A stretch of 64,000 nt of DNA, taken from an uncultured Gammaproteobacteria bacterium. GTDB lineage: Bacteria; Patescibacteriota; Patescibacteriia; Magasanikbacterales; GWA2-37-8. Location of the stretch: assembly GCA_964465205.1 (NCBI GenBank), contig CAYXJO010000008.1, forward strand, positions 2,164 to 66,163, given 5' to 3'. The notes below the pieces were generated by a model. The model had not been told where the DNA came from and made no database searches. It saw only the letters and a list, made by a program, of their open reading frames with translations. Every line of letters begins with the position of its first letter. Position 1 is the stretch's first letter. Positions 1 to 17,000 of this stretch are shown piece after piece. Both the position numbers and the translations under genes were made by a program.

Positions 1-2201
1 TTCTTTGATAATATGGTTAGGTCCATATTTTCTAATGTCATTAGCACACGTTCTCCGGTGCCCGCAGGCAATTGGGTAAAGTCATCAATGGCAGAAATTA
101 AGTTTTCTTTTTTGCATGCCAAATCAATCATAATTGGAAAAAGTCCGCTAATGTATTTGCGATGTTCGTCATTATCTTCGGTCTCTAATCCGCGTCGGTC
201 TCCACCCAAATCTCGCCAACGGAATCGGTGAGTTTCACTTATGACACCACCGTTATAATATCTTCTGGCGAATTGCCAAACTATATGAGGGTATTTATCT
301 TTCAGTATGTCCAGTATATCAAGACGCTGCTTAGATGTTGCATTGGTTTGAGGCATCCCAGGAAGAAATATATCTCCAAGACTGTTTATTGGCCTATTGG
401 CATATTGCCCACCTGGATCCAAAGAAGATAATTCGCACAAGATGTTTACGGCACGAGTAAAATATTCCGGGCTCCACGCTAGCGATTCCAACGCCCACAA
501 TAAACCACTGTGATTACAATCATTTGCATCGCCCATAAGAGATTGGAAAGCCTGGGGATTATTCTTGATCGTCTGTTCGACAGAGCCCATAAATTGATCC
601 AGTGATGCTTCGGCTAATATTGGCATAATATCTTTAATCGAAGCCCAATCTTCCCACTTACTTTGATGGTCGAGTATCTCTTTTACAACATCATCGACAA
701 ACGATTGAGTAGAAATATCACCCAACGCAAGAAGAACTAATGATTCGGCCATGCCTATGCGGAGCCATTCCGAATGAGGTCTTGTCTTGTTATATAGCGC
801 TGCCATCCACTGTTCGTTTTCTGGCAAATCATACTTTGGGTCATCTTTGGTAAACACTGATGTCGCGGCACTACGGAATAATTTTAGAAAGTCACCTGTA
901 ATACTAGAGGACAGCAAGAACCATGCATCTAAAGGTGACTTTAATTTCCATACATCCCCAACTTTTAGAATAGGCGAATCGTCCATAGCCAAGAGTGGAG
1001 TTAAATTCTTAATGAAGTCGCCATAATTTATGCCAGCCAATACTTCAACGACCTTTCGATCTTCTTCTTTCTTGTCATCCCACGCGCCAACAAATAATAC
1101 GGGCAGTAAAGATTTAGCCGTTTCACCCTCGGCCCACGCCGGCTTATCTGCGCCAACAATTGATTGATGGCGGCGAAATATAACCATACTTTTACCAAAA
1201 TCTCTTGCTATGCGTTGCGCGTCAATGCCGGATAAGTTGATTTTAGATAGCGCTTGTTCAATAGCCGTTCGCTGCGGGCGAGACAATTCAGTAAATCTAC
1301 CGCGCGCCCTAATGGATTTTGCTTCAGCCCCCAAGAAGACATGATGACCTTTCTGTACAGCATAACTAGCCGCTTCCCTACAGCTAGCCGGTGCAACAAT
1401 AATGAGAGGGCTTTTGTATTCCGAAACGGAACGAAACTGTTCAATATTTTCCACTTTGATACAGCGAGACAGAGACCGTATGCGTTGATTCTCTGGCGAT
1501 CGCGCAATTACACTATGGAGAAAAGCAAGTGGCTCATCCGCTGAATCGCCCCTTACTTCAATGACGCTCGGTTTCTCCTCTATCCAACTTCGGATGTATT
1601 CTTCATCTTTTAAACGACCGGCTATAATGAGCTCCGGTGTCACTGTCGGATTAGTGACAACCGACCACTCCTCCCAGAAACGACCTATATCCCGTACACC
1701 ACTTGGCAATATTCCTATCTGCCCGGCCAACCACGAGGCGACAGCTGGACATTCATTAATCCACTGCAATAATTCAGCGCCAGCTATGACTCTTACATCT
1801 TTCCATATGCTGGTTGATTTATTTTGGTTTTGCCATTCTTGAAATTTAGCAAATGGCCGCGGAGTGACAAACACAAAAGTGGTCTCACTACGCGTTAATC
1901 CCATTGGGTCGGCCGTTCTCTTGGCATAATCTTTGTTTGCTTTGACTTGGCAGGATTCTTCCATGCCTATTTCCCAGCCGGAGATACCAATAGGGAAGAA
2001 TGGAGAAGCAGCAGAGGTATCCAAAGTGCCATCCCAACCACCTTGGGCCACACCGTCGCCGCTTGGAAAGATAATCCGTTTAATATCACCCACATCGGCT
2101 GTCGCCCATATAAGGCGACAAATTAACTCCGGCAATATCCGCGAGCATTGTGTTGAATGGCTAAGCCAATATTTAATGTCTCCGTCGTTTATCCACTTCA
2201 T
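1..2201 (-). CDS. Large hypothetical protein, 3' end beyond the window (>730 aa); N-terminus MKWINDGDIKYWLSHS...
   Basis: I translated the minus strand by hand from the ATG (plus CAT 2199-2201) to position 1 and met no stop. Frame checked at three points (about 1500, 660, 20). It is absent from the ORF track only because no stop lies inside the window. No >=60-aa ORF on either strand explains this 2.2 kb otherwise. In-frame upstream ATGs near 2264 and 2290 are alternative starts. Confidence 0.6.
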   Translation of the reverse strand, partial: MKWINDGDIKYWLSHSTQCSRILPELICRLIWATADVGDIKRIIFPSGDGVAQGGWDGTLDTSAASPFFPIGISGWEIGMEESCQVKANKDYAKRTADPMGLTRSETTFVFVTPRPFAKFQEWQNQNKSTSIWKDVRVIAGAELLQWINECPAVASWLAGQIGILPSGVRDIGRFWEEWSVVTNPTVTPELIIAGRLKDEEYIRSWIEEKPSVIEVRGDSADEPLAFLHSVIARSPENQRIRSLSRCIKVENIEQFRSVSEYKSPLIIVAPASCREAASYAVQKGHHVFLGAEAKSIRARGRFTELSRPQRTAIEQALSKINLSGIDAQRIARDFGKSMVIFRRHQSIVGADKPAWAEGETAKSLLPVLFVGAWDDKKEEDRKVVEVLAGINYGDFIKNLTPLLAMDDSPILKVGDVWKLKSPLDAWFLLSSSITGDFLKLFRSAATSVFTKDDPKYDLPENEQWMAALYNKTRPHSEWLRIGMAESLVLLALGDISTQSFVDDVVKEILDHQSKWEDWASIKDIMPILAEASLDQFMGSVEQTIKNNPQAFQSLMGDANDCNHSGLLWALESLAWSPEYFTRAVNILCELSSLDPGGQYANRPINSLGDIFLPGMPQTNATSKQRLDILDILKDKYPHIVWQFARRYYNGGVISETHRFRWRDLGGDRRGLETEDNDEHRKYISGLFPIMIDLACKKENLISAIDDFTQLPAGTGERVLMTLENMDLTILSK

Positions 2202-2332
2202 ATTAAAGAGGATTAATTTGAATAATATCACTACTATACCACTTAAAGGAATCGGCATCAATCTTGATGTGATTGTGCGGCACATACCAAATATGGTATT
2301 ATAATTATAGCTATAATAATTACTTTTAATTT

Positions 2333-2596
2333 ATGTCCACCTATTTCCAAATGCCTAGTGTATGGGAAACGGCCAAAGGTATCTGGCCAGTGTTTTGGGG
2401 TGTAAGCAAAATGCTTTGGCCATTATGGTTATTCATCGCCATTATGATTCCAGTTAAGATCTTGGCGAAACGGGCGATAAGATGGGCGAATAATAAACGA
2501 CTGATGAAAGTCAAGCAGAAATGCCCAGACTGCGCCCAACTGGTGCCGCGCGAAGCCAAGAAGTGCAGCTATTGTGGAAAAATGTTTGGCATGTGA
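2333..2596 (+). CDS. Small membrane protein with C-terminal CxxC...CxxC zinc-ribbon
   Basis: 87-aa ORF with a hydrophobic helix (WPLWLFIAIMIPV) followed by CPDC...CSYC. No clear SD. Confidence 0.35.
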   Translation: MSTYFQMPSVWETAKGIWPVFWGVSKMLWPLWLFIAIMIPVKILAKRAIRWANNKRLMKVKQKCPDCAQLVPREAKKCSYCGKMFGM

Positions 2597-3560
2597 AATC
2601 AATTGCATATCTATGAATGTTATAACGTTTATAAAATTTCCCGGTATTAACACTTCAGATTTAGATATTGATTCTTTAATTCAAGAACTGAATCAGCTGT
2701 GTGTTGAAACTAGCAAAATTAATTTGAATAATTACGAGAAAGAGTGCGAACAATTATATCTTAAATATAAAACGAGCAATCCTGAGGTATCCAAAATACC
2801 GGGCATGGTCAGCAACCGATTTAAAGCAGACATACCAAAAATAAAACGTGCCATTTCCAGGGGGCAGATAACTAGCTTGTTCGTCAAGAAATTTAACAAG
2901 ATGAAGACGGACGCGGATGTTTTGTTAAAAGAGTATGACAATTTGCTAAAGAACGGAAAAGTTACTTATAATGCTTATACCAACACAAACTGCGACAAGG
3001 AACTAGAAACCGCAATCAAACAAGCCGTTGATCTGTTAAAGAAATACTACAAGGAATTAGAGAGATTAGAGCCAGCAGTCATAAGTAACGAGGATGAATG
3101 CATCGGCGATGGCCTTGGTGCGCATATACAACATGTTGTCACTGATGACCGACCACTAATAAAATTGACGCCAGATACTATCAACGATCATTTTGATGGC
3201 GAATATATCTTCCCGCCAACCGACCACTTCGCGCTAAAGAAGACTGGCGACGGGAAATTCTGCGGTCAAGAATTTAACTTAAATAAGCACGGAGAGTCTT
3301 TCAAGATATTATGCTTCTTAATAGCCAACAGGGGGCGCTGGGTAAGGGATGAGGATTTATACAAAATGCTCGGCCAAAGAAACAAGAAGCGTTTGATGAT
3401 ACAGAAGGTTGTAAAGCTAAAGAAAGACATTTTGAGCCAGACAACGAAACTCTCCAATAAATCAGACAGGAAGGCAAAGGACACATACCTAAAATGCAAA
3501 AGCAAATGGATAATTAATAGGAGTACGAAGTTGGGAAGAATGTTTGAAATTGAAGAATAA
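2574..3560 (+). CDS. Hypothetical protein (328 aa); basic C-terminal region possibly DNA-binding
   Basis: Long ORF followed by a clean rho-independent terminator. An alternative start is at the MNVITF Met (about 2615). Confidence 0.5.
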   Translation: MEKCLACEINCISMNVITFIKFPGINTSDLDIDSLIQELNQLCVETSKINLNNYEKECEQLYLKYKTSNPEVSKIPGMVSNRFKADIPKIKRAISRGQITSLFVKKFNKMKTDADVLLKEYDNLLKNGKVTYNAYTNTNCDKELETAIKQAVDLLKKYYKELERLEPAVISNEDECIGDGLGAHIQHVVTDDRPLIKLTPDTINDHFDGEYIFPPTDHFALKKTGDGKFCGQEFNLNKHGESFKILCFLIANRGRWVRDEDLYKMLGQRNKKRLMIQKVVKLKKDILSQTTKLSNKSDRKAKDTYLKCKSKWIINRSTKLGRMFEIEE

Positions 3561-3578
3561 ATTTAGAACAAACAACTG

Positions 3579-3605
3579 GCCCCGCTATTGGCGGGGTTTT
3601 TGTTT
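3579..3605 (+). terminator. Rho-independent terminator (GCCCCGC-tattg-GCGGGG + T-run)
   Basis: Stem-loop followed by TTTTTGTTTT, read directly. Confidence 0.7.
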
Positions 3606-3650
3606 TACTGTTTTCAGATGTTTTCAGATGTTTTCAGATGTTTTTCGTTT
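3601..3650. repeat. Tandem 10-bp iteron-like repeats: GTTTTCAGAT x3 perfect plus degenerate flanking copies
   Basis: tgttttactg ttttcagatg ttttcagatg ttttcagatg tttttcg, with exact 10-bp (one helical turn) periodicity. Followed by TATAAT at 3654-3659, about 200 bp upstream of the primase/helicase-like gene. Confidence 0.7.
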
Positions 3651-3866
3651 TTCTATAATTTCGTCGGCTTTGATATTCTACTATCACCAGCGAAGACATC
3701 CTATCGTTGTCTAACGCTGACAGAACGGCCGGCGCCAATTTTGAGCGTTGGTGGAAAAACAGTCTTGCCAACTGGGGAGCTCAAACCCGGTGAGCGATTC
3801 TGCCGGCCGACAAGACTGAGGAGAAATTTATTTATGTGCTCATAAATAATGTAAAAACAAGCATGC

Positions 3867-5621
3867 ATGAGCACTTTAACAATTCATATGAATAACAGCC
3901 AGAATGCTTCCGTGGCCGGAGCAAAACCAAATAAGCCACAAAATGCCAAGCTTTATACAGCACTGGTTACCGCACCAAACGGTACTGCTAATACTACGCA
4001 ATACATCTTGGAAGTCATAGGTAGCACCGCTAAAGAATTATTTTTGGACCAATTCGGGAATCTTTACATAGTTGTCCAAGTCAAAGAAACCGACAAACAC
4101 ATAAAGGTCAATTCGGAAGAGTTCATAAAATGGGTCTCCATGACGATGAACATCTTAGGTAAAATAGTCCCAAACCAGTCATCAATCAGACAGGCTGGAC
4201 ATACGCTATCTGGATACGCCGAGTATGACAAAAGCCTCGCGTCTCGCAAATACCTGTCTGTCCGCGTGGCCAAAACAGAAGACGGGGCCATCTATTACGA
4301 TCTAAAAGATAAAGTGGTAAAGATCATCGCGACGGGCTGGAATGTAACTACAAACCCTCCAATATTATTCAGAAATTTCAACATGCAATCCACCCAGGTC
4401 GATCCAGCACCAGTAGGTGTGAATGATCAAAGGTACATCTCTAACTTCGTCGATTCTTTAAATCTCAAAGATGACGCCAGTAAATTGTTAATGAAGGTAT
4501 ACTTAGCCACAAGTTTTATCCCAGATTTTGCTCATCCTATAATTCAAATATCGGGACCGAAGGGCTCGGCCAAGAGCACGCTATTTGCAAGATTAAAGGA
4601 TATCATTGATCCGTCTGTGATTAGAACACTGCCACCCATTACCAAGATGGAGCAATTCATCCAAATCGTATCGCACAACTGGGCCGCATATTTCGACAAC
4701 ATGTCGTCATTAGATGTCGAATCATCCGATATGTTTTGTCGGGCGTGCTCGGGCGCTGGCTATGTGAAGCGCGAATTGTACTCGGACGATAACGACATTG
4801 GCTATGTCTTTAAGCATCTCATTGGCATTAACGGTGTTGTTAATATAGCCAGCCGCGCCGATCTAGTTGATCGAATATTGTCCATTGAACTAGACGCGAT
4901 ATCGCCAGACAAAAGATTAACAGACGCGGCGATTTGGCAGAAACACAACGCCGAAAAACCAATGCTACTAGGCGAATGTTTCACGGTGGTATCACAAGCA
5001 CTGGCCTTAGAGCCGACACTGAAAGAACAAATACCGACTTCAACCAGAATGGCAGACTTTGCGTACTGGGGTTACTTGGTTGCCGAGGCCATGGGGATTG
5101 GTGGTATGAACTTTTTCAACACATACCGATCACTAGTTAATACCCAAGATGCCGATGTCATTGACAACAACCTACTAGCATCCGTCTTTGAACATTATGT
5201 TACCAACTATCCGATAATCATCAATGAAATTACCGCCAGTGATTTGTTGGTGGCGTTAAATAAAGAAGCGGAAAACTTGTGCCCTGATTATAAACACAAT
5301 CGAAGATGGCCAGATTCACCACAGTGGCTATGGAGACGATTGTCTGAATACCTGACAAACTTCCAACAAAAAGGTATTGTTGTACGCCAAGAACGACAGA
5401 GTAAGTCTCGCAAAATTATTATCGACAAGACCATCTACGACAATAACTTGACTATAGCTAACCAAATTGAGTTGATAAATGCTAATAACCCGATACCGTT
5501 GGAGTACGACGAGCCATTCAATGAAGCAGAAATGGAATTTGAGCAGGGATTTAAAGATCTCGTCGATCCCCTTTTAGTTGGGCACGACGACATGACGACA
5601 TTTCTTGCTTTTAATAAGTAA
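3867..5621 (+). CDS. Phage/plasmid-type replication protein: P-loop NTPase of the primase-associated (VirE / D5 / P4-alpha-like, SF3-helicase-like) kind
   Basis: Walker A ISGPKGSAKSTLFARL and Walker-B-like AAYFDNM. Its size and position next to a recombinase in a mobile-element context support the call. Family assignment is from motif memory only. Confidence 0.55.
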   Translation: MSTLTIHMNNSQNASVAGAKPNKPQNAKLYTALVTAPNGTANTTQYILEVIGSTAKELFLDQFGNLYIVVQVKETDKHIKVNSEEFIKWVSMTMNILGKIVPNQSSIRQAGHTLSGYAEYDKSLASRKYLSVRVAKTEDGAIYYDLKDKVVKIIATGWNVTTNPPILFRNFNMQSTQVDPAPVGVNDQRYISNFVDSLNLKDDASKLLMKVYLATSFIPDFAHPIIQISGPKGSAKSTLFARLKDIIDPSVIRTLPPITKMEQFIQIVSHNWAAYFDNMSSLDVESSDMFCRACSGAGYVKRELYSDDNDIGYVFKHLIGINGVVNIASRADLVDRILSIELDAISPDKRLTDAAIWQKHNAEKPMLLGECFTVVSQALALEPTLKEQIPTSTRMADFAYWGYLVAEAMGIGGMNFFNTYRSLVNTQDADVIDNNLLASVFEHYVTNYPIIINEITASDLLVALNKEAENLCPDYKHNRRWPDSPQWLWRRLSEYLTNFQQKGIVVRQERQSKSRKIIIDKTIYDNNLTIANQIELINANNPIPLEYDEPFNEAEMEFEQGFKDLVDPLLVGHDDMTTFLAFNK

Positions 5622-5623
5622 TT

Positions 5624-5893
5624 ATGCCACCACTGATATATTACATTCCTTTCGATCAATACAAGGCCGCTGTTCTCAAGAATGAAAAGCTCAAACACTT
5701 GGACGACGACCAAATCAAAGACCTTTACGAGACCCAACACAAAGTCGCGGAGATGGCCTTTGCCGAATGGCTACGATTAAAACAACTGGCGAAAGAATGC
5801 CGCGAGCGAAACGGCGATTCTTCTAAGGAAAGTGAAGCGACCACCAACCAGACCAACGAACCTGCTAACAGCGGGCCTTCGGCCACCAGTTGA
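5624..5893 (+). CDS. Small hypothetical protein (89 aa), acidic/helical
   Basis: ATG immediately after the stop of the upstream gene (TAATTATG), giving translational coupling. Confidence 0.4.
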   Translation: MPPLIYYIPFDQYKAAVLKNEKLKHLDDDQIKDLYETQHKVAEMAFAEWLRLKQLAKECRERNGDSSKESEATTNQTNEPANSGPSATS

Positions 5894-5924
5894 TTATTGA
5901 TTCCTTACATGGTAAAATACCGGC

Positions 5925-6039
5925 GATACCAATCCAACTACTAATAGCGGAACACGTAAATAATTGCGTCCAAAGATGGAAGCGTTGTTCTGCGTCAATC
6001 CGCTATTAGTGGGTTGGTATCACGCACGGACACGCTTCC
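5925..6039. promoter_or_regulatory. Interleaved inverted repeats upstream of the recombinase gene (candidate att/regulatory site)
   Basis: GATACCAATCCAACTACTAATAGCGG (5925-5950) pairs with CCGCTATTAGTGGGTTGGTATC (6000-6021). GGAAGCGT (5978-5985) pairs with ACGCTTCC (6032-6039), followed by a T-run. Confidence 0.45.
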
Positions 6040-6088
6040 TTTTTTGGTTCATATCACCTTAAAGGAATAAATAATTTATCTTAATTAT

Positions 6089-7678
6089 ATGACAAAACAA
6101 ATCAAAACTATCATTAACAACTCCGATCGTGGAGTAATTTATTATCGCGTTTCAACCTCGGAGCAAGCCGAACACGGCTTTAGTTTGGAAAGACAACGCG
6201 AACTGTGCCTCAATCACGCCAAGGCAAAAGGCATAGAAGTCATCTCGGAATTTCATGACGACGGCGAATCGGCAAAGACCGCTAACCGCAAAGGATTGCA
6301 AGACATGCTCAAATACTGCGCAGACAGGAAGAATAATATCGGCCATGTAATCTTCTACAAGATTGACCGACTGACAAGAAATGTCGATGATCATGTGTTT
6401 GTGAAGACCGTGTTAAAGAAGGCCGGTGTGAAGTTAACTTCAGTCACCGAAAGCATGGATAACGAAACTCCAGCCGGAAAATTTACCGAGAATATGTTAG
6501 CGGCGGTGGCACAATTTGATAATGATGTCCGCTCGGAACGTACGCGCGGTGGCATGTATGGATGTTTGAAAACCGGACGCTGGCCATTCCGCGCCCCCAT
6601 CGGATACCTCAACCACATTGATAGTGATAAGAAGAAATCTATCGCGCTTGATCCCAAAAGAGCTAACCTGGTAAAAACCATATTTACTGAATACGCCAAC
6701 CCCATAGTTACCCAGGAAGAGGTACGTCGTAAGGTTAACAATCTTGGGCTACGAGATGCTCATGGTCGGCAAATCCGTCCACAGTTTATCAACAAGATAT
6801 TACAAGACCGTTTCTATATTGGCACCATGACAGTAAAAGGAGTGGATTACCCAGGCACGCACGATAAATTAGTCGACGAAGAGACCTTTGAATTGTGTCA
6901 AAGAAAGTTGAGATATTATGACCGCGGCGATCATATCGCCATTGGTCGATATGACGAAGACTTCCCATTAAGACACTTCGTGGTGTGCGAAGATTGCAGA
7001 CGGCCACTAACCGCCGCGTATTCTACCGGGCGTTGGGGCAAGAAATTCCCTTACTACCGTTGCTATAACAAACAATGCCCGAGTCATAAATCATACCCCA
7101 AACAACTACTGGAAGAAGAATTCGCTAATTATCTAAAAGAGATTGTGCCCACTGAAGAGCAGATGGAAACTTACCGGATGCATGTATTGGATATATGGCA
7201 AACGAAATTCAAAGAAATCAACACTCATCGCGAAAGATTGGAGCGCGAACTGAAATCTGCTCGCGAGGAGAAGGAAGGCATTATCGAGATGAAAGCCAAG
7301 AAACAAATTAACGACGAGGAGTTCCAAGTAATGTTCACCAAAGCCAGAATCAAAGTAGACGATCTCCAAATAACGTTTGGCCAAACCGACCTGGAAGAAT
7401 ATGATTTAGATGAGGCAATTAAACACTCCATCGCCTTCGCCGCACAACTCGCGAGCTATTGGGAAAAGTCGCCGTACTTCCAACGCTTGTCTATTCAGGG
7501 TTTAATTTTCCGCCAAAAGCCTACTTATGGAGATTCGAAATTTGGAACCCCAAAATTACCGCTAATGTTTGAACAAAAACAGATTTCCGTACAGGGGAAA
7601 TCCGCTATCGTGGACCGTATCGGATTTGAACCGATGGCCTCTTCCATGCCATGGAAGCGCTCTAGCCAGCTGAGCTAA
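6089..7678 (+). CDS. Large serine recombinase (resolvase/invertase catalytic domain + recombinase domain + zinc-ribbon)
   Basis: N-terminal YYRVSTSEQ...GFSLERQRE...DDGESAKT catalytic-Ser domain. C-terminal CEDCRRPL...YYRCYNKQC zinc ribbon and coiled coil. The last about 22 codons are the reverse complement of tRNA-Ala. Confidence 0.85.
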   Translation: MTKQIKTIINNSDRGVIYYRVSTSEQAEHGFSLERQRELCLNHAKAKGIEVISEFHDDGESAKTANRKGLQDMLKYCADRKNNIGHVIFYKIDRLTRNVDDHVFVKTVLKKAGVKLTSVTESMDNETPAGKFTENMLAAVAQFDNDVRSERTRGGMYGCLKTGRWPFRAPIGYLNHIDSDKKKSIALDPKRANLVKTIFTEYANPIVTQEEVRRKVNNLGLRDAHGRQIRPQFINKILQDRFYIGTMTVKGVDYPGTHDKLVDEETFELCQRKLRYYDRGDHIAIGRYDEDFPLRHFVVCEDCRRPLTAAYSTGRWGKKFPYYRCYNKQCPSHKSYPKQLLEEEFANYLKEIVPTEEQMETYRMHVLDIWQTKFKEINTHRERLERELKSAREEKEGIIEMKAKKQINDEEFQVMFTKARIKVDDLQITFGQTDLEEYDLDEAIKHSIAFAAQLASYWEKSPYFQRLSIQGLIFRQKPTYGDSKFGTPKLPLMFEQKQISVQGKSAIVDRIGFEPMASSMPWKRSSQLS

Positions 7679-7684
7679 CGGCCC
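7611..7684 (-). tRNA. tRNA-Ala (anticodon GGC); CCA not encoded
   Basis: Hand-folded cloverleaf: acceptor GGGCCGT/ACGGTCC with the G3:U70 Ala identity pair. D-arm GCTC-AGCTGGCTA-GAGC. Anticodon arm CTTCC-ATGGCAT-GGAAG. T-arm ATCGG-TTCAAAT-CCGAT. Discriminator A. Confidence 0.8.
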
Positions 7685-7723: not shown

Positions 7724-10700
7724 TCAAGGCTGGGCCGCAGAACTGTTAACTACTGCTTCTTGGCTGGGTAACTCTACCGCAGCAGGGGGCTCAATCGATG
7801 TTTCTTCGGCTGTCGGCACATCTGGCTCTGCAGTTGGCATAATTGGCTCCGCTGTGATTTCTGGTACGGTCGATGTTGGCACTGAATCCTGATCAAATGC
7901 TGGCGTAGAAGTGCCCGCATTGCCCACAACTGTCTCTTCGATAGCCGCATCATCAATCGGCTCAGCAGTACCAGCATCTCGCACTTGACCGTCTCCACGC
8001 CTAGCCACCACTACCCAATCAAATGTAGCGTCGCTTTGACCCCCCATCAATTCTTTTACTACAAAACCAAAAGCATCCTTCGCCTTCACAAATATACCCT
8101 TCGCTTCTTCTGATGTCAGTGTTACACTCACTTTCAATGATTGACCGCTGTCTATCATATCGCGAGTACTGGTATCAAACTTGATATATGTTTCTCCAGC
8201 CTGCAATCTACCGGAACCCGAAAACACTAGTTCCGAAGATAATGCTTGCATCGCATACACGTCCTTGTTGCCTTCCGAAGTCTGCACCACCGATACCAAC
8301 AAACCATCTTCGGTAATGCGCCACTTGTCACTACGAGCGTGCACCGCGGTCACGTTGGCCAAAATTGCGCCATTCAAATTTAACTCATTGTTCTTTACCA
8401 TCAAATAATCTGATCTCTGATCAATGGTCAATTCGGTCGAAGTGGACACAACACTATCTTTCGCCATAAAATTTGCCAAAGTAGTGCTAACATTATCAAT
8501 TGCACTCCAAATGGCACTATTGTTGCTTAATTCTTCTACCTGAAAAAAAGCCAACGACGTCGATACTATGCCCAAAGAGTCAGAGAACTCTCCAAATCCG
8601 GCCATTAATTTTTCGGTACTACTATTTAAAACGGCCAACTGATTACCGAATAACATCGTCATCTCATCTGATAACTTAACCCGAAAAGCATCGCCAAATA
8701 ATTGTAACTTAGAATCAATCAACGCCGACAGTTGTGACACAGAACTAAAATCATACTTACCAACAGCACTGGAAACTAAAATTTGCACCTCATCTTCAAT
8801 CTTCATATCGGCGATATGGCGAGTAATTTTTTCTTCCACCTGCTCCACAGTCATAGACTTATTGCGACGCGAGATCAAAACATTCACTGTACCAACACCG
8901 GAATCCAACCCTTCTAAAGCCACACCAACTGTCGAATCACCAGCATCAGCACGCATAAGATACCCTGGGGTACTACTGGCGCTAGTAAGACTATCTCCCG
9001 GACGAACAGGCCCGTTTTCTGCGCTCACTTTTGCCGCCACCTGGCCGAGCATGCCAATAATTTTATAATTCGGATCATTCTCGCGATCACCGCTCTTATT
9101 ACCAATAATTGACGGCTTGGTGGATACAACGCCCATAATATCCGGATCGGCACTGCGCGTACAGCGTTTGACGGCGTTATTTTTTGTCACATCCACGCAC
9201 ACTACTTCGCCCGATGTTAAGTCCTTGTCCTTGGTATAGAAATACTCCGCGTAGTCAGCGCCATTGGTGAGATAACTACCGGTAATATTTACACTACCAG
9301 AAACAGTAAGTGCGTAATTGGGCGTGGTCGTGCCGATACCGACATTACCGTTACCAGCAATAGTCAAATAACTACCAATATTATTACGCATCGGACCAAA
9401 GTGTAGTGAGGTGGTAGCACCAGACGTTACAGCACTACCAACTTGTATATACACATCACCATCTTCATCGGTAACCAACCTAAGATGAGATGGGGTGCCG
9501 CTGGTGTTGGCTAGCGATATACCTGCATTATTGCCCCATAAATGCAATAAATCCTGTGGCGTGCTAGTCCCAACACCTACATACCCATTACTACTCACGA
9601 ATAACGCTGGTTGAGTAGTAGAGGTATAAACTGATAACAGTGTACTAGTGGAAGCCCCTATTATAGACAATCTCGCATTTGGAGTAGATGTGCCAACACC
9701 CACTTTCCCATAATTTGTTCGGGCGATTAAAGCTACCACACCATCGTTACCACCGCCAACACCATTGCCGCCATCAATATATGTTATACCACCATTTCCC
9801 GAACCAACACCATTACCGCCAGCGATAATAATATCATAACCATTACCAACAGTAGTGCGAAAAGGGCCGATAACAACATTCTGGTCCAAAGAACCCAGAG
9901 TAACATCAAATTGATCGCCATAGGCGCCAAAAGCTGCTTTGGCCGCTGGAGATGCAGCGACATTATCTAAATAAGCGCCAAAGTTTGAAACAATTGAAGT
10001 ATTACTGTCTGAGGCGTTGGTTTTAACTCGACTGATGATGGTGGCGTTGCTTGTACCAGCAGTATAACCAGTGGAAGAAGAAAATACATACAACGGTGAG
10101 ATCGGTGTAGTAGTGCCAATACCCACATTGCCACCCATGATAGCCATGGTATTTGCTTGGGTCACAGAAAACCTAGAGCCAGTATCTAGACCAATACCAA
10201 CCGACCCGGAGCCCGAAACTGTCATGCCACTACCCATGGCCATAGTCGTGTTACCACTTGAAGCATTACCACTGCCAATAGCGACAGCGCCGTTGTAACC
10301 GTCTACTAAATTCAAACTACCAATTGCTACTCGGCCCTCCACCAAAGGTGCATCTGACCCATTGGTAACTGTTCGGTTGGCAAAACCTATAAGCACTGTG
10401 CCATGATGTACATAACTAGACGGCCCATCATCAATATGATTACTATTACCAATCAAAGCAACACCGCGATTAGTACCAGTGACCACAGCGTTCCAATCGG
10501 CTATGAATACTCCATTTCTAAAAGCCAAACTACTAGTTGCTGACAAAACACCTCCACTATTATATTGCACCTCTCCATCATTGCCGGCCACCGTTGTAGT
10601 AGCAGAACCAAAAGCGGACCACGTACCACCAGAATTTTTGAACTCTAACACACCACCATTATCACGCAAGCCATAGCCACCAGTACTGGTAATCGCGCCA

Positions 10701-13700
10701 AAGTTTATATAGCTATTACTATCTAACAAAGAAATGCTGCCGCTCACTGTCAGCGCCGCCACAGTATTAGTTGTCGCAATACCAACAAAACCAGTAGTAC
10801 CAGCTCCGTTAGACGATCCAACAAATAAGGTGGGCAAGTCACTGTTGAAACCAATCATTAAAGAATCCGCAATATTATTAACAAGCGGATTGTTTATGCC
10901 AGCTCCCACACCAATTACTGAACTTTGAACAGCTGCTGCCTGTACCGCACTGCCTATCACTATGGAGTCTCGAGCGGTCGCTTGTGCGTTAGCACCAAAA
11001 GCCAAACTACTCTCACCTGATGCTAAAACATTCTTACCAATTGCCTGCGAACTAGTGCCAATGTTCACATTATCCCATTCAGTACTACTAGCTATACCAG
11101 CACGAAACGAACCCTTGCTCGGTATCCACATCAGCCGAGTGCCAGCACCAGAAAAAGGAGTGTCGCCCGATGAACCATTAAATAACACTGAACCATTTTC
11201 AACCCCCAACCTGGCTATTACCGAAGTGGTACCCACTCCCAACTTCCACATTGCCGGGTCCCAATTAAGACCATTGTCACTAGTGATCGTAGAACTACCA
11301 TCCCACCAAGCTATTTGGTGGCTTGAACCACTTCCTTGCACACCTGTTACACCGGTAGTATTGGTAGAGATCGTGTACCAATTATCATCGCTACTGTGCT
11401 TAACTTGCACAAGACCGCCATAATCGCGCAAACCATAGCCATCCGTACCTGTTACGGAGTTAAAATTTAAGTAATTGTTACTGCCGTGCAACAACATGCC
11501 GCCTGATACCGACAGCTTAGTTGGCGGGTCTGAAATACCAATTCCAACATTCCCCGTCTGATCAATAGTCATTCTCACCACCCCAGATGAAGTGTCATTC
11601 TGTACGGTGGAGAAAGATATTTTGGAACCCTTGGCCGTATTGGTAAAACTTTGAGTAGCGCGAAAGTCAATCGACGAACCATCTAAAAACGTGCCCCAAG
11701 CACTAGTACCATAACCCACTGCAGTAATCGAACCCAGACGGTCATCATTCTGCACAGCCGAAGGCGCACTTTCGGTACCGCGCGCATAAGCCAAACCAAA
11801 AGCCGGATAACCACTACCGGGCGTTAATCCAGAATAATATGCCGCCGCAATAGCCGAGTCAGCTTGGTAGCCCCCGACAGCTACCAAGCTCAGACGGGTC
11901 AAAGGCCTACTGGTTCCTACGCCGACATATCCGGTGCTACTGCTAATAAACAAAGCTGAAGTAACAGTCCAACTAGTGCCGACACTATACAAAATATTAC
12001 CATCGGATCCGCTAGGCAAACTTCCACCACTGCTTATGTTTGCCCAATCTCCGCCACTATTTTTATATTGCATCGTACCGTTCAAGTCGCGAAATCCGTA
12101 GCCAGCAGTACCAGTAACATTATCTCCCGAGCCGAAATTCAAGTACGTAGTAGCACCAGGGCCAATACTTGATATCAAAGCATCACCATACACAGACAAT
12201 CTGGCTGGTGGATTACCAGTAACAGAGCTACCAATGCCGACATTACCGGTATGATCAATTACCATACGCGTATATGAACCATCAGAACCATTAGGTACCG
12301 TTTGAAACATGATTTTGGAACCGTTACTAGTAGAGGTAAATTGTTCCGTTGCCACAAATCTAATAACTGGACCCGCCCCAAAAGTCCAACCATCAACACC
12401 ATAACCTCCAGCTACTATTTGACCAAGATTATCTCCATTCTGAATTGCTGTCGGGCTAACAGGTGTCCCACGCGCTCGCATCAACGCGATTGTTGCGCCA
12501 GAATTATTGTCATTATAATACCACATGGATTGACCAGCACTAAAAGTATCAGTGCCGGATATGCTCAATTTAGTCAATGGATCCACAGTTCCAAAACCAA
12601 CATAACCCGTACTACTACTTATGTATATTGTCCGAGTAGCAACCCAATTGGCACCGACCGATGATATGATAGCCCCGTCTAAACCGGCAGGTACTGAACT
12701 AGTGCTAATATTCGTCCAAGCGCCATCGCTATTTTTGAATTGGATTGTGCCAAGATTATCACGGAAACCATAACCAGAGGTGCTAGTGGTGGAACCAAAA
12801 TTAATATAATTATATGATCCCTCCAATAATATGTTCCCATACACCGATAACTTCGATTCTGGCGACTCAGTACCAATACCAATATTACCACTATGATCAA
12901 TTACCATACGTGCCAATGTCGGGTTGGATAAACCATTTTGCGTAGTATACATAGCAATCCTAGAACCACGCCTACTACCGCCAGAATTAGAGAAATTTTC
13001 CGTAGCTTCAAAATTAATAAATGACGACACACTATAAGTACCACTACCTATATAACCCGACGCCAACACGCTACCAATCCAATCACCTTGTTGAACTGCT
13101 GTGGGACTGCTTTTGGTGCCACGTGAGTGCGCAAACATGACAGCCGGATACCCATCAGCGCCATGATAAAAAGAACTTATCATTGATTGTCCAAAAGAAC
13201 CAAGTGCTGATGATTCGCCTACCGCCGATATCCCGGTAGTGGGATTAGTCGTGCCTACACCTAAATACCCAGACACAGTGGTGGTGGCTAAGGTCGTATT
13301 TCTAGTTATAACAAGACTGCCGTTAGCATAAATCCCGGTCGAAGTTACTCGATTGAAGTTGAAGTTGCCTTGGGCATCAGAGATAGGAATATAAGTGGAC
13401 GTAGAAGCAGTCGAGGTGGCAGATACACCATCAAGATATTTGGAGTTAAAAGAATATGGCGCAGCAGTAATGCGTTTGCGCGGAGATAACACTTGCCCGT
13501 CGATACTAATCTCTAAATATAGATCGGAATTATTTTGAAATATAGTTGGCGACAATGAGTTGGTGCCGGTATCACCCAAATTTACACTAAATAATCCGCT
13601 AACTGGTGTAATATTTACAGTTGAAGTGGTTGGCAACGTACCGGAAGCAGTGTATAAAGCCGTTCCGCCAGACGCGTTATTGTATATAACGAATTTCATC

Positions 13701-13891
13701 GCCAAGGTGGTAGTAGCTGCTGTCCCATTCACTAACAATTTACCTTGATAAGTAATTATCGCTGGGGTGGCAGCCGCTTTTGTCGGCACGCCGTTACAAG
13801 TCGCAAAAATTGTAAACAAAACAATCCCGAATAACAAAAAGTTACGGAGTTTGCCAATTTTCCACCGTACGCTCTCAGTATATTTCCACAT
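7724..13891 (-). CDS. Giant secreted repeat protein (2055 aa) with about 20 degenerate repeats (..STGYVGVGTTNP.. / ..GNVGIGT..P..LSV..) and a Pro/Thr/Glu-rich C-terminal tail
   Basis: N-terminal signal/TM segment (LLFGIVLFTIFATCNG). Long Gly/Ser/Thr/Asn-rich beta-repeat body. A non-repeat module ...NGADYAEYFYTKDKDLTSGEVVCVD...IMGVVST... Terminator downstream. Confidence 0.85.
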   Translation of the reverse strand: MWKYTESVRWKIGKLRNFLLFGIVLFTIFATCNGVPTKAAATPAIITYQGKLLVNGTAATTTLAMKFVIYNNASGGTALYTASGTLPTTSTVNITPVSGLFSVNLGDTGTNSLSPTIFQNNSDLYLEISIDGQVLSPRKRITAAPYSFNSKYLDGVSATSTASTSTYIPISDAQGNFNFNRVTSTGIYANGSLVITRNTTLATTTVSGYLGVGTTNPTTGISAVGESSALGSFGQSMISSFYHGADGYPAVMFAHSRGTKSSPTAVQQGDWIGSVLASGYIGSGTYSVSSFINFEATENFSNSGGSRRGSRIAMYTTQNGLSNPTLARMVIDHSGNIGIGTESPESKLSVYGNILLEGSYNYINFGSTTSTSGYGFRDNLGTIQFKNSDGAWTNISTSSVPAGLDGAIISSVGANWVATRTIYISSSTGYVGFGTVDPLTKLSISGTDTFSAGQSMWYYNDNNSGATIALMRARGTPVSPTAIQNGDNLGQIVAGGYGVDGWTFGAGPVIRFVATEQFTSTSNGSKIMFQTVPNGSDGSYTRMVIDHTGNVGIGSSVTGNPPARLSVYGDALISSIGPGATTYLNFGSGDNVTGTAGYGFRDLNGTMQYKNSGGDWANISSGGSLPSGSDGNILYSVGTSWTVTSALFISSSTGYVGVGTSRPLTRLSLVAVGGYQADSAIAAAYYSGLTPGSGYPAFGLAYARGTESAPSAVQNDDRLGSITAVGYGTSAWGTFLDGSSIDFRATQSFTNTAKGSKISFSTVQNDTSSGVVRMTIDQTGNVGIGISDPPTKLSVSGGMLLHGSNNYLNFNSVTGTDGYGLRDYGGLVQVKHSSDDNWYTISTNTTGVTGVQGSGSSHQIAWWDGSSTITSDNGLNWDPAMWKLGVGTTSVIARLGVENGSVLFNGSSGDTPFSGAGTRLMWIPSKGSFRAGIASSTEWDNVNIGTSSQAIGKNVLASGESSLAFGANAQATARDSIVIGSAVQAAAVQSSVIGVGAGINNPLVNNIADSLMIGFNSDLPTLFVGSSNGAGTTGFVGIATTNTVAALTVSGSISLLDSNSYINFGAITSTGGYGLRDNGGVLEFKNSGGTWSAFGSATTTVAGNDGEVQYNSGGVLSATSSLAFRNGVFIADWNAVVTGTNRGVALIGNSNHIDDGPSSYVHHGTVLIGFANRTVTNGSDAPLVEGRVAIGSLNLVDGYNGAVAIGSGNASSGNTTMAMGSGMTVSGSGSVGIGLDTGSRFSVTQANTMAIMGGNVGIGTTTPISPLYVFSSSTGYTAGTSNATIISRVKTNASDSNTSIVSNFGAYLDNVAASPAAKAAFGAYGDQFDVTLGSLDQNVVIGPFRTTVGNGYDIIIAGGNGVGSGNGGITYIDGGNGVGGGNDGVVALIARTNYGKVGVGTSTPNARLSIIGASTSTLLSVYTSTTQPALFVSSNGYVGVGTSTPQDLLHLWGNNAGISLANTSGTPSHLRLVTDEDGDVYIQVGSAVTSGATTSLHFGPMRNNIGSYLTIAGNGNVGIGTTTPNYALTVSGSVNITGSYLTNGADYAEYFYTKDKDLTSGEVVCVDVTKNNAVKRCTRSADPDIMGVVSTKPSIIGNKSGDRENDPNYKIIGMLGQVAAKVSAENGPVRPGDSLTSASSTPGYLMRADAGDSTVGVALEGLDSGVGTVNVLISRRNKSMTVEQVEEKITRHIADMKIEDEVQILVSSAVGKYDFSSVSQLSALIDSKLQLFGDAFRVKLSDEMTMLFGNQLAVLNSSTEKLMAGFGEFSDSLGIVSTSLAFFQVEELSNNSAIWSAIDNVSTTLANFMAKDSVVSTSTELTIDQRSDYLMVKNNELNLNGAILANVTAVHARSDKWRITEDGLLVSVVQTSEGNKDVYAMQALSSELVFSGSGRLQAGETYIKFDTSTRDMIDSGQSLKVSVTLTSEEAKGIFVKAKDAFGFVVKELMGGQSDATFDWVVVARRGDGQVRDAGTAEPIDDAAIEETVVGNAGTSTPAFDQDSVPTSTVPEITAEPIMPTAEPDVPTAEETSIEPPAAVELPSQEAVVNSSAAQP

Positions 13892-14001: not shown

Positions 14002-17000
14002 TTACTGCTGTGTTGTTATGTCGACCGGCTTATCTGGCATAGTATTATTATCGCCTGTACTTACTGTTGAAGTTGGTGTGGGTTTATTGGGTGGCGATTG
14101 TAAACCGTCCGCCTTTTTCAGCGCTACATCCAATGCAATCGCCGCCGCATCTTGCCCGCGCAAGTCAATGTCTTCGGTTTTGGCCTGTTCATAACCCGGA
14201 CGTTCATAAGTAACATAAAACTGACTATCCGCTGCCAAAAATGTATAACGGCCATTCCTGTCGGTGATTTCGGTTGACACTAACTTGTTGAAATGTGAGT
14301 CAAACAGACGCGCCACCGCCCTATCCAACGGTTTTTTAGTGTGTTCATCATAAACAATACCCCATCCTTTGGCCTTTTGCATCACCGCCAATCTTCTAAA
14401 TAACAAGAACAAAACTATATGCACACCCAGCAATACCCACATATACCATTTTGGCGAAATATATAACGCCACAATAGTCACAAACAAACCTGTCCAAGAA
14501 ACCAAGATTTGCACATGACGCAACACTCTTTCCACATACAAACGTCGTGGTGTTTTGGACTCACCAGCCGGATCCATTGGAATGTTGGCGGTAATTGTAG
14601 TATCTTTGACCGTTACTTCGATCACTTCACCATGGTACAAATCCGTACGCCGACCATCGCTTTTGAAGTCCACCAACAACTTGGTAGGCGACACAAACCC
14701 GGCCTTAAAAGCTTCAATCTTATATTTACCCGGATCAGCAATGAAAATGTATCTACCATTTTTATCGGTTACACGTGAACGAATAATCTTACCGGATACC
14801 GCATCAACCAGACGCACTATCGCCAAATCAACCGGCATTTTACTTAAAGAGTTATACACCTGACCCCAATTTTTGCGCTTACGCCGGCCTATCAACAAAA
14901 TCGGCTGAAAAAACAATAGTTGTAGAAATGCCCACAAATTAGAGAAAGAAATAAGCGACACTGTGCCAACAGCCACCACACCTACGGCCGCCGGAGCCAC
15001 AATTTGAGTCGCTGCTTGTTCTACCACCGGATTATCTACCGTCTCTTTGATAACCTCCACTGCTCTTTCAATATTGGCGGGAATGGCCGCGGCGATAGTC
15101 GCCGGCTTCATTGTTAACCGAACTTGTCGATTAACTACGTTATTAGTAACAAGAAATCTTTGAGTCTTATGTGAATAGTATCTGTCTACATCTAACGCCA
15201 AATAATATTTACCATTTGGCACTACCCAACCAAAAACACCGTTGCGATCCGAGATTAACGGATTCAATTGTCCGTAATAATCGGCATTAAACAGTTCTCC
15301 TTTATCGTTGTACAGTTTTATATTGACCCCTTCCAAAGTAACTCCGCCGTCGCCGGTCACCACGCCTGTCGGCAAACTAGACAATTTAAAATTTACACTA
15401 TCAGTTTGACCCGATCCGTAATCTATCTCCAAAAAGGCGCTATTATCCCCATTTGGAAAAACAATATCGGTATAATATGTTTTTTGTTCATTGTCCAAAT
15501 TCAAGGCGTATTCGTTATTACCAAACCTCAACGCCACCCTAATAGGTGGCCCAGCCAACTTGACGCGTGGTACACCAACCGTAAACGCCGATCGCACCAA
15601 ACTACGTACGACACCCGCAGTATCCGGACGCAACTCAATATTGCGTGCTCCTCCCCAAAATAGTAGATCGCTAAGGTTCAAGTGTACAAAACCAGGTACG
15701 GTTATACCTCGACGACAATCAGTGGTGTTGAAAGAACAGTTGCTATTACACCGAACTACACCTTCATTCCAATCTATATTAAAATCACCGCAAGATTTCG
15801 TAATCGGCAGATTAGTTTCGCAATCTTCACCTATGTCCACAGTGCCATTGCCACAATTTTGTGGGTTGCCACAAGATAATGTGCAGTCACTGGCACAACT
15901 AGAAATACCACAACCGTTCAACGCACCATTGTCGCAATCCTCGGCTCCTTGTCTGGTGCCATCACCACACACCGGACAAACTTGAGTTTGGCACGTAGCA
16001 CTACAGGTGCTAGGGCAAATTCCATTGTTCGATCCGTGATCGCAAGTCTCTCCAGCACTAACATCAAGGTTACCATCGCCACAATTACCACCGCCTATAT
16101 GAGAACACCCTGAATAGTTATAAGTACAATTATTATTACAAGTAACTACACCGGAGTTCCAGTTGGCGTCTTGCTCGGCACAAGTACGAGTAATTGGTTT
16201 GTTTGGCTCACAATTTTCACCAGCGTCTGGCTCTCCATCACCACAATAGCCTTCATTTTCACAAACATTTCTCTTACAACTCATACTGCAGGCCTCTGGA
16301 CACACACCATTGGACCCGCCATTATCACATTCTTCACCCGCCACATCAATGAGTGAGTCGCCACAATAAGCTACTTTACAAAACACTTTGGCACCAGTGC
16401 TATAGTTGTCGGAGGTGTCTTTGGTAAAAATCTTATAATAATAATTTTTGTTTGCCGAAATACCACTATCAGTATAAGTCTGGCCGATACCGTCATAAAC
16501 CAAGACACCATCCAAATGCCCCGTAGGCTCAACATCTAGCTTTCTCACCACTTCTACTCCGGCAAAACAAGCCTCCGATAATTGATCGGGGTTGATCCAA
16601 GACAGTGCACAATTACGACTGGTGGTCACAACACCAAACTCCGAAACATTGGTAGGATTATTCAACATGTCCAACAATGTAGTGAAGGTATCATCGCTGG
16701 TACGCACTTGTTCATCACCCACTGCCGACACAACCTCGTAATGATAGGTAGTATTGCCGCACAAGTTGCTTACTAGTTGGCTATGGTTCGACAATAACGT
16801 AGAATTACCGATCATTGAACCATAGGCCGAAGTTAATCCATAATTAATCTGACTATCTGAATCTTTGTTGGTATTCCAAGTAACACTGGTAGTGGTCATG
16901 CCTGCACGAACCACTACATTATATATAGATAATGCTTGCCAAGGTGCCAACGTGCGGAACGTACCAACTACCGCCGAACCATTATTGGAGCTATCAGTAC

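Follow-up and report, generated by a model that had tools for sequence, protein, structure and literature searches.

The attB sites of Myxococcus phage Mx8 lie in tRNA-Asp genes. Integration of Mx8 takes place at an attP within the integrase gene (int), and makes a new int 3′ end that modifies the specificity of the enzyme (PMC6070905). The integrases of Mx8 and SSV both extend across attP (Islander paper). In this study a comparable arrangement was analyzed in a 64,000-nucleotide stretch of contig CAYXJO010000008.1 (assembly GCA_964465205.1; the whole stretch is called the window, and positions are counted within it), where the open reading frame (ORF) of a large serine recombinase (LSR) runs into a tRNA-Ala(GGC) gene on the opposite strand. 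We consider it highly probable that the locus is an integrative element, inserted by its LSR at the 3′ end of the host tRNA-Ala(GGC), with attP in int, an exchange of the integrase tail and a replacement terminator for the tRNA.

Mx8 is the closest analogue, by functional resemblance and not by family membership. As in the conversion of IntP to IntX in Mx8, attP falls in the int coding sequence and the C-terminus of Int is altered while the enzyme is not simply destroyed; this arrangement is observed in relatives of the window element and is predicted for the window copy. Mx8 Int is, however, a tyrosine recombinase of a 49-kb phage, whereas the enzymes considered here are LSRs that use a 4–10 bp core in elements of 4–10 kb, and their arrangement is conserved throughout a very large clade, with many different tRNA species as targets. 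SSV-type archaeal integrases likewise have attP in int and a gene that is split by integration; they belong to the tyrosine family and are split into two large gene fragments, whereas here only the last 15–30 codons are exchanged.

Classical islands in tRNA and transfer-messenger RNA (tmRNA) genes resemble the present elements in that insertion leaves the tRNA functional and int adjoins the tRNA-proximal end. They differ in having a tyrosine integrase, a tRNA fragment in attP and a displaced fragment that forms a direct repeat. Here the integrase is of the serine type only, about 4–10 bp are shared, and the displaced sequence consists of the C-terminal coding segment of the integrase together with the tRNA terminator. 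The integrases of SPbeta, Bxb1, PhiC31, Listeria A118/LI and TP901-1 have the same domain set, the same fold and similarly short att sites with minimal identity between attP and attB. The characterized serine integrases differ in their targets, the known examples in the searchable literature being directed to protein-coding or intergenic sites, and the accepted view has been that tRNA genes are not among the sites of serine integrases (Islander paper). Among the tycheposons, tRNA-targeting elements of Prochlorococcus, 27 of 937 carry a large serine recombinase (preprint). These are also small elements with primase/helicase-type replication genes and cargo; the available portion of the preprint text mentions neither an attP in int nor a tail swap. 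In the literature searched, no paper placed attP within an LSR gene, and none described a clade of such LSRs at the 3′ ends of tRNA genes, although coverage of the literature was incomplete and a prior description is possible.

Integrase gene, tRNA overlap and its recurrence

The following features make up the right end of the element:

6089..7678, forward strand: LSR ORF in its integrated state, 529 aa; residues 1–508 are element-encoded and 509–529 are the complement of the host tRNA
7610..7684, reverse strand: host tRNA-Ala(GGC) gene (ARAGORN, Rfam), intact, with G3 paired to U70 and without an encoded CCA; its 3′-terminal part is the B′ arm of attB
7610..7613, no strand: predicted crossover core GTGG at the right end of the element (attR), covering discriminator A73, the base that follows it and acceptor positions 72–71, by analogy with L012–L014 and 14 other elements
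7568..7606, reverse strand: intrinsic-terminator-like hairpin and T-run directly 3′ of the tRNA, antisense in the last element-encoded int codons (P arm of attP)

The product of the ORF is an LSR. Pfam matches to Resolvase (PF00239, 1.3e-34, residues 16–164), Recombinase (PF07508, 5e-13) and Zn_ribbon_recom (PF13408, 2.5e-8) were detected, together with a match to the phrog_95 integrase family (E 3e-80). The catalytic motif Y18-x-R20-V21-S22, which marks a resolvase-type catalytic domain, is invariant across 44 relatives, and the zinc-ribbon residues Cys300, Cys303, Cys325 and Cys330 are conserved in LSR relatives. The tRNA-Ala(GGC) was called at 7610/7611–7684 on the minus strand by both ARAGORN and Rfam (63.2 bits), and its right flank is ordinary chromosome (trigger factor, H+-pyrophosphatase, M23 peptidase). 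A preliminary description of this DNA had the recombinase ORF running into the opposite-strand tRNA-Ala gene, and this was borne out: the two overlap by 69 nt, or 23 codons counting the stop. V508 (GTG, 7610–7612) straddles the tRNA 3′ end, and the 21-residue tail that follows (DRIGFEPMASSMPWKRSSQLS, residues 509–529) is pure tRNA complement. The same description gave the last ~22 codons of the recombinase as the complement of the tRNA. The sequence agrees, but because attP lies within int (see below) these codons are better read as host DNA fused to int by integration than as part of the element's own gene.

A recombinase ORF that merely lacks a stop before an unrelated tRNA gene, with no site-specific relation between the two, would look the same in a single genome. 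Twenty-three stop-free codons arise by chance with a probability of ~0.33, about 1/3; the overlap alone is thus not unusual, and its test had to come from relatives. A protein search for homologues of the window LSR (cut-off E <= 1e-10) returned at least 1552 matches among the candidates scored, and a scan of GTDB with one genome per species confirmed at least 457 stretches encoding a relative, from which 80 loci were kept for analysis. Among the matches listed, the closest homologue other than the protein itself was only 49% identical, and the sources were mostly Patescibacteria. The lineages represented include Patescibacteria, Acidobacteriota, Verrucomicrobiota, Myxococcota and others.

An opposite-strand tRNA was found to overlap the 3′ end of int, in the same frame, in 66 of the 80 related loci. 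Most of the targets are tRNA-Glu, and Ala(TGC), Lys, Leu, Asn, Arg and Met genes are used as well. At the protein level, 102 of the 120 best homologues end in a tRNA-complement peptide (…GIEP…; …LVAPRGIEPLLPG-like), the …LVAPRGIEPLLPG-like endings being the reverse complement of the tRNA acceptor and T arm. We regard the recurrence in 66 of 80 loci as decisive evidence from sequence comparison that the overlap is not due to chance. With the same overlap, frame and junction position in so many loci from many phyla, a coincidental overlap is effectively refuted and its probability negligible; the pair of circular and integrated relatives described below argues against it as well. A few relatives end otherwise, in the shared motif W-N-x-[LI]-[IV]-x-[ED]-[LI]-x-x-W.

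In one locus (L059) two tRNA-Glu genes with the anticodons TTC and CTC lie 1 kb apart (11466–11540 and 12454–12528) and are 98.7% identical over 75 nt. The element occupies only the first of them.

Attachment sites and displaced tails in relatives

The position of attP was observed directly in a pair of relatives. The 5509-bp contig L029 has a 55-bp terminal repeat and closes to a 5454-bp circle, which is 99–99.8% identical to positions 6018–11477 of L032, a copy integrated beside a tRNA-Glu gene. The alignment blocks of the two overlap by 6 bp only, TGGTAG, which corresponds to the CCA encoded in the gene, the discriminator and two bases of the acceptor. The Int of the circular form ends in …SRMV-DRVTNSWNSIIVELEYVFKLNLDKATV and that of the integrated form in …SRMV-APTGIEPVLTD; integration swaps the last 27 int codons for the complement of the host tRNA. 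No tRNA gene was found in the circular relatives. Because the circle is without a tRNA and the junctions share 6 bp, the tRNA of this pair is host DNA, and attP is placed within the int ORF. Another relative, L162 (10,823 bp, with a terminal repeat of 30 bp), is circular as well and falls in the clade nearest to the window. At its junction …CTCGATAGTAG runs directly into ACTACTGTATTGAG…, and the P′ arm ACTACTGTATTGAG was found again at attL, the far end, of the integrated elements L006, L008 and L015.

To locate far ends, the sequence upstream of int was searched for an in-frame displaced tail immediately preceded by a short repeat of the tRNA end. Both ends were mapped in 17 integrated relatives with element lengths of 4.1–10 kb, and the displaced natural tail stands in frame at the far end of these 17 delimited elements. 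The cores shared between the two ends are 4–10 bp long (GTAG, GTAC, GTGG, TGGTAGCCC, GCGACCC, CTTGTTGC and others), and every mapped core spans the base after the discriminator, the discriminator and acceptor positions 72–71. The three elements at tRNA-Ala(TGC) genes (L012–L014) have the core GTGG and the natural tail VVKKRISNSLDEIIEEIKYW…. The short att sites with minimal identity that characterize LSRs were thus found in 17 attL/attR pairs and in one complete attP/attL/attR set. Relative to the integrated form, the reconstructed excised form of Int has 11–27 additional residues. The tail motif is kept across clades that are only ~33% identical, with varying codons, and this argues for selection on the peptide.

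It could be supposed that the locus is a classical tRNA island, with a substantial stretch of the tRNA 3′ part, or all of the tRNA, included in attP. In that case the codons complementary to the tRNA would belong to the element, and its other end would be marked by a displaced fragment of the tRNA 3′ part. Islands with tyrosine integrases follow this pattern as a rule (Islander paper), and fragments of 16–22 nt from a tRNA 3′ end do occur upstream in a few relatives (L006, L038, L039, L056). The circular relatives, however, carry no tRNA, the junctions of L029 and L032 have only 6 bp in common, the 17 mapped elements share cores of 4–10 bp, and positions 1–7600 of the window hold no tRNA-Ala fragment. 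In L039 the 22-nt fragment is part of a B-arm duplication that lies 150 nt beyond the true attL. We therefore consider a classical island very improbable and retain an attP inside int with a host-owned tRNA.

The duplication in L039 comprises ~45 nt of the host B arm, with copies at 5059–5115 and 5205–5255, the second of which is the true attL. After the first copy come 22 nt of the tRNA-Glu 3′ end and then unrelated DNA; this arrangement may be the footprint of an older event. In L006, two fragments of a tRNA 3′ end (85–104 and 303–321) lie ~3 kb outside attL. A crossover in the anticodon loop was also considered for the tRNA-Glu loci, where the ORFs stop at a TGA in that loop, and was ruled out by the L029/L032 junctions; the stop falls there because the tRNA complement has a stop codon at that place in that frame. 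In a group of relatives (L031–L043, L076, L025) the P′ arms carry TGGAAY, from the conserved W-N codons, ~20 nt from the core, and the B′ arms carry GGAATCGAA, from the T loop, ~10 nt from the core. These arm motifs could represent half-site mimicry with a shift of ~10 bp.

A scan of viral contigs yielded one close relative, L081 (IMG/VR, 7147 bp). Its contig is cut exactly at the int stop codon within the tRNA-Glu complement and so says nothing on attP. The end of the contig may reflect a provirus boundary call at the tRNA, cutting at the anticodon loop.

The natural-tail Int of the circular L162 (P0022) was modeled with AlphaFold, with a mean predicted local distance difference test score (pLDDT) of 83.5. 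The model matched the SPbeta, Bxb1, PhiC31 and LI integrases over the full length (Foldseek E 8e-23 to SPbeta) and also 4kis. A long helical hairpin at residues 347–423 corresponds to the coiled-coil insertion and, with the other domains, gives the domain set of an LSR.

Proposed junction, terminator and mobility of the window copy

By analogy with the mapped relatives, the window element would have entered the extreme 3′ end of the host tRNA-Ala(GGC) gene by LSR recombination, with its attP sitting in the 3′ end of the integrase gene that it carries. The junction in the window runs from …AATCCGCTATCGTGG into ACCGTATCGGATTTGAACC…. The crossover is predicted to fall within GTGG (7610–7613), which covers the discriminator, the base that follows it and the first two bases of the acceptor, and all sequence to the right of this core would be host DNA. 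Since only ~4 bp would be common to element and target, the tRNA would stay intact and wholly host-owned. Integration would cut the int ORF ~15–30 codons before its natural stop and join residues 1–508 to the tRNA complement. The natural tail, with W-N-x-[LI]-[IV]-x-[ED]-[LI]-x-x-W as an amphipathic helix motif, is expected in frame at attL, outside the window.

The tRNA would also have exchanged its terminator. A terminator scan of the window detected a stem at 7606..7578 with 11 pairs and the tail TTTGTTCAAA, antisense to int codons ~497–507. The same terminator-like feature was observed in 33 of 67 loci, including nearly all loci of the close clade, compared with 7.5% of control windows inside int. 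In the reconstructed attB sites the native terminator of the host was found at the equivalent position, and for this reason we infer that the P arm of attP mimics the B arm and supplies the tRNA with a replacement terminator after integration. The hairpin and T-run in the last element codons would thereby stand in for the native terminator, which integration moves away.

The left end of the element was sought with tRNA fragments, core k-mers combined with an in-frame tail, regular expressions for the tail motif and P′-arm patterns (<=3 mismatches), and none was found in 1–7600 or elsewhere in the 64 kb. With no displaced tail, P′-arm-like sequence or tRNA fragment in the window, the left boundary lies outside it. 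A boundary beyond position 1 fits the leftmost gene, which runs 1548 nt past that position, and agrees with the preliminary description, in which the far boundary and cargo extended beyond the window. A direct repeat of the tRNA-Ala 3′ segment, proposed there as the mark of the far end, would fail as a marker because the shared cores are only 4–10 bp; the real marker would be the displaced coding fragment of the int C-terminus. From 7613 leftwards to beyond position 1, the element would be at least 9 kb long.

The element may have integrated as described and have lost its far end or its ability to excise, so that it is now a decayed or domesticated part of the chromosome. No left end lies within 7.6 kb, whereas the mapped relatives measure 4–10 kb, and neither close relatives nor excised forms were found in the protein search and the metagenome scans. 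On the other hand, the ORFs of int, the small protein and the P-loop protein (described below) are intact and the catalytic motif is conserved; the 1277-aa gene at the left explains the extra length, and at least 1.5 kb of contig lies further left. A remnant of this kind is, in our judgment, unlikely.

Several observations weigh against the interpretation of the window copy as a mobile element with attP in int. Its exact core is extrapolated over a distance of 49% identity to the closest relative. The preliminary description had suggested a search for junction reads in metagenomes, and there were no matches to the predicted attP junction of the Ala group or to the 3′ half of the window tRNA-Ala. 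No attL, empty site or excised form was found for this copy. Among the relatives, natural-tail int genes with an intact attP also occur within long chromosomal contigs of 112–592 kb (L055, L071 and L072, int from 10001; protein P0098), and an intact attP is therefore not always episomal. Such copies may be inactive, may have entered by another route or may belong to larger elements. Finally, the tail of the P0022 model falls below a pLDDT of 50 from residue 495, with a short helix at 507–517, and gives no clue to the role of the tail. For this copy, the junction of the relatives and their continued ability to excise are adopted by analogy, and we expect with good confidence that both apply. 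An integrative element with an LSR at tRNA-Ala, as first proposed for this DNA, is supported by the recurrence across the family, the L029 circle and its integrated copy, the second circle (L162), the 17 relatives with both ends and the gene order of a further relative (L080, below).

Other genes of the element and implications

Leftwards of int, the following features were identified:

5925..6047, no strand: nested inverted repeats, located 3′ of the small ORF and 5′ of int, that may act as an operator or form a 5′ untranslated region structure
5624..5893, forward strand: small ORF, 89 aa, immediately 5′ of int; weak family member (iterated hidden Markov model E 1.1e-4)
3867..5621, forward strand: P-loop ATPase, 584 aa, Walker A GPKGSAKS, homologous to the C-terminal ATPase/helicase-type module of primase-polymerase proteins
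3609..3644, no strand: tandem repeat TGTTTTCAGA, 3.6 perfect copies, in the 306-nt spacer 5′ of the P-loop gene
2574..3560, forward strand: hypothetical ORF, 328 aa, no family match
2333..2596, forward strand: zinc-ribbon ORF (C-terminal), 87 aa, sub-threshold Pfam zinc-ribbon matches; phrog_8436
1..2285, reverse strand: first 761 aa of a protein of 1277 aa that extends leftwards out of the window; probably cargo

The small ORF belongs to a family of proteins of ~50–90 aa (M-L-S-L-E-Q…L-S-D-E-E-L…R-D-x-L-Y…A-F-D-x-W) found ahead of int in at least 60 of the 67 loci. The member in the window has no match in Pfam, NCBIfam or PADLOC. It is a candidate regulator or directionality factor, and the only candidate for a separate recombination directionality factor. 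The spacer that follows it (5925–6047) contains a long imperfect inverted repeat (GATACCAATCCAACTACTAATAGCGGA … TCCGCTATTAGTGGGTTGGTATC) with a nested hairpin, and the right arm of this repeat (AATCCGCTATTAGTGG) resembles the P arm and core at 7599–7613. A P-arm-like copy 5′ of int was considered as an autoregulatory site; it was rejected, as it is not general across 60 relatives.

Residues 26–534 of the P-loop protein are 32% identical over 514 residues (E 7e-79) to P0132, a Prim-Pol + PriCT_1 protein. The N-termini of its fused homologues carry Prim-Pol + PriCT_1, DUF3854, NrS-1 HBD or AEP-TOTE. It was identified through these homologues alone, no direct match having been found in Pfam, PHROGs, NCBIfam, PADLOC or PDB. 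The gene had been described as encoding a primase/helicase-type replication protein, of which the homologous P-loop ATPase module stands; the protein has no primase domain of its own (AEP or Toprim), and only the C-terminal module of ~500 aa aligns, with no match to Prim-Pol. Homologues lie directly 5′ of the small ORF and int in L004, L045, L050 and L080, and in L080 the P-loop gene, small ORF and int follow in the order of the window within a delimited 8.7-kb element. The 10-bp iterons reported upstream correspond to a real array of 3.6 perfect copies, but their designation as iterons is a guess, since no TGTTTTCAGA-like array was found upstream of the homologous P-loop genes in L080 or L004.

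The product of 1–2285 is 100% identical to P0176, a protein of 1277 aa. Its family (~1262 aa) is widespread across phyla, with 44–55% identity between distant lineages and no Pfam domain. A weak, colinear match to PADLOC PD-Lambda-4_A was detected (E 3e-4 to 1e-3), and the gene is probably cargo of the defence type. In L165 and L166 a homologue comes after an HTH_17 gene near the contig end. PHROGs assigned a function only to the integrase among the six element ORFs in the window, the zinc-ribbon ORF matching families of unknown function only. No virion or packaging genes were found among these six ORFs with PHROGs, and the part of the element within the window does not qualify as a prophage. 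The cargo of the delimited 4–10 kb relatives includes a rolling-circle Rep, Mrr, restriction-modification methylases, toxin-antitoxin systems, an ABC/AbiEii-type ATPase and SocA/Panacea, and the genes of the circular L162 include those for a ResIII helicase and an N6_N4 methyltransferase.

On the other side of the tRNA-Ala gene lie two giant minus-strand ORFs, 7724–13891 (2055 aa) and 14002–17919 (1305 aa). The first has Peptidase_G2 and YadA-head matches, and its N-terminus is 56% identical to a stretch in L060, a metagenome-assembled genome of Magasanikiibacteriota; the second has PT-HINT/intein-like and CarboxypepD_reg domains.

In a broader and more tentative picture, the window LSR would be a member of a very large undescribed clade that targets the discriminator and acceptor end of tRNA genes. 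As its gene spans attP, the integration state would be written into the protein, with a W-N-x-L-I-x-E-L-x-x-W tail in the episomal form and a tRNA-encoded tail in the integrated form; the tail swap could serve as a built-in switch of activity or directionality, and the element would give the tRNA a new antisense terminator. That the swap itself changes the activity or directionality of the integrase is conceivable, and we put it forward with some doubt.

This widespread clade uses tRNA genes, contrary to the working rule of the field on serine integrases. Programs for island detection that are keyed to tRNA-fragment repeats would miss such elements. Most database entries for these integrases are chimeric, as their last 12–23 residues are tRNA complement, so that …GIEP… is wrongly taken for a "conserved" motif. 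Integration and excision can be compared between the two natural forms of a single enzyme, and this bears on the control of LSR directionality. Because the target that these enzymes recognize is almost universal, and is present in lineages that are hard to work with, such as Patescibacteria, they are candidate tools for integration.

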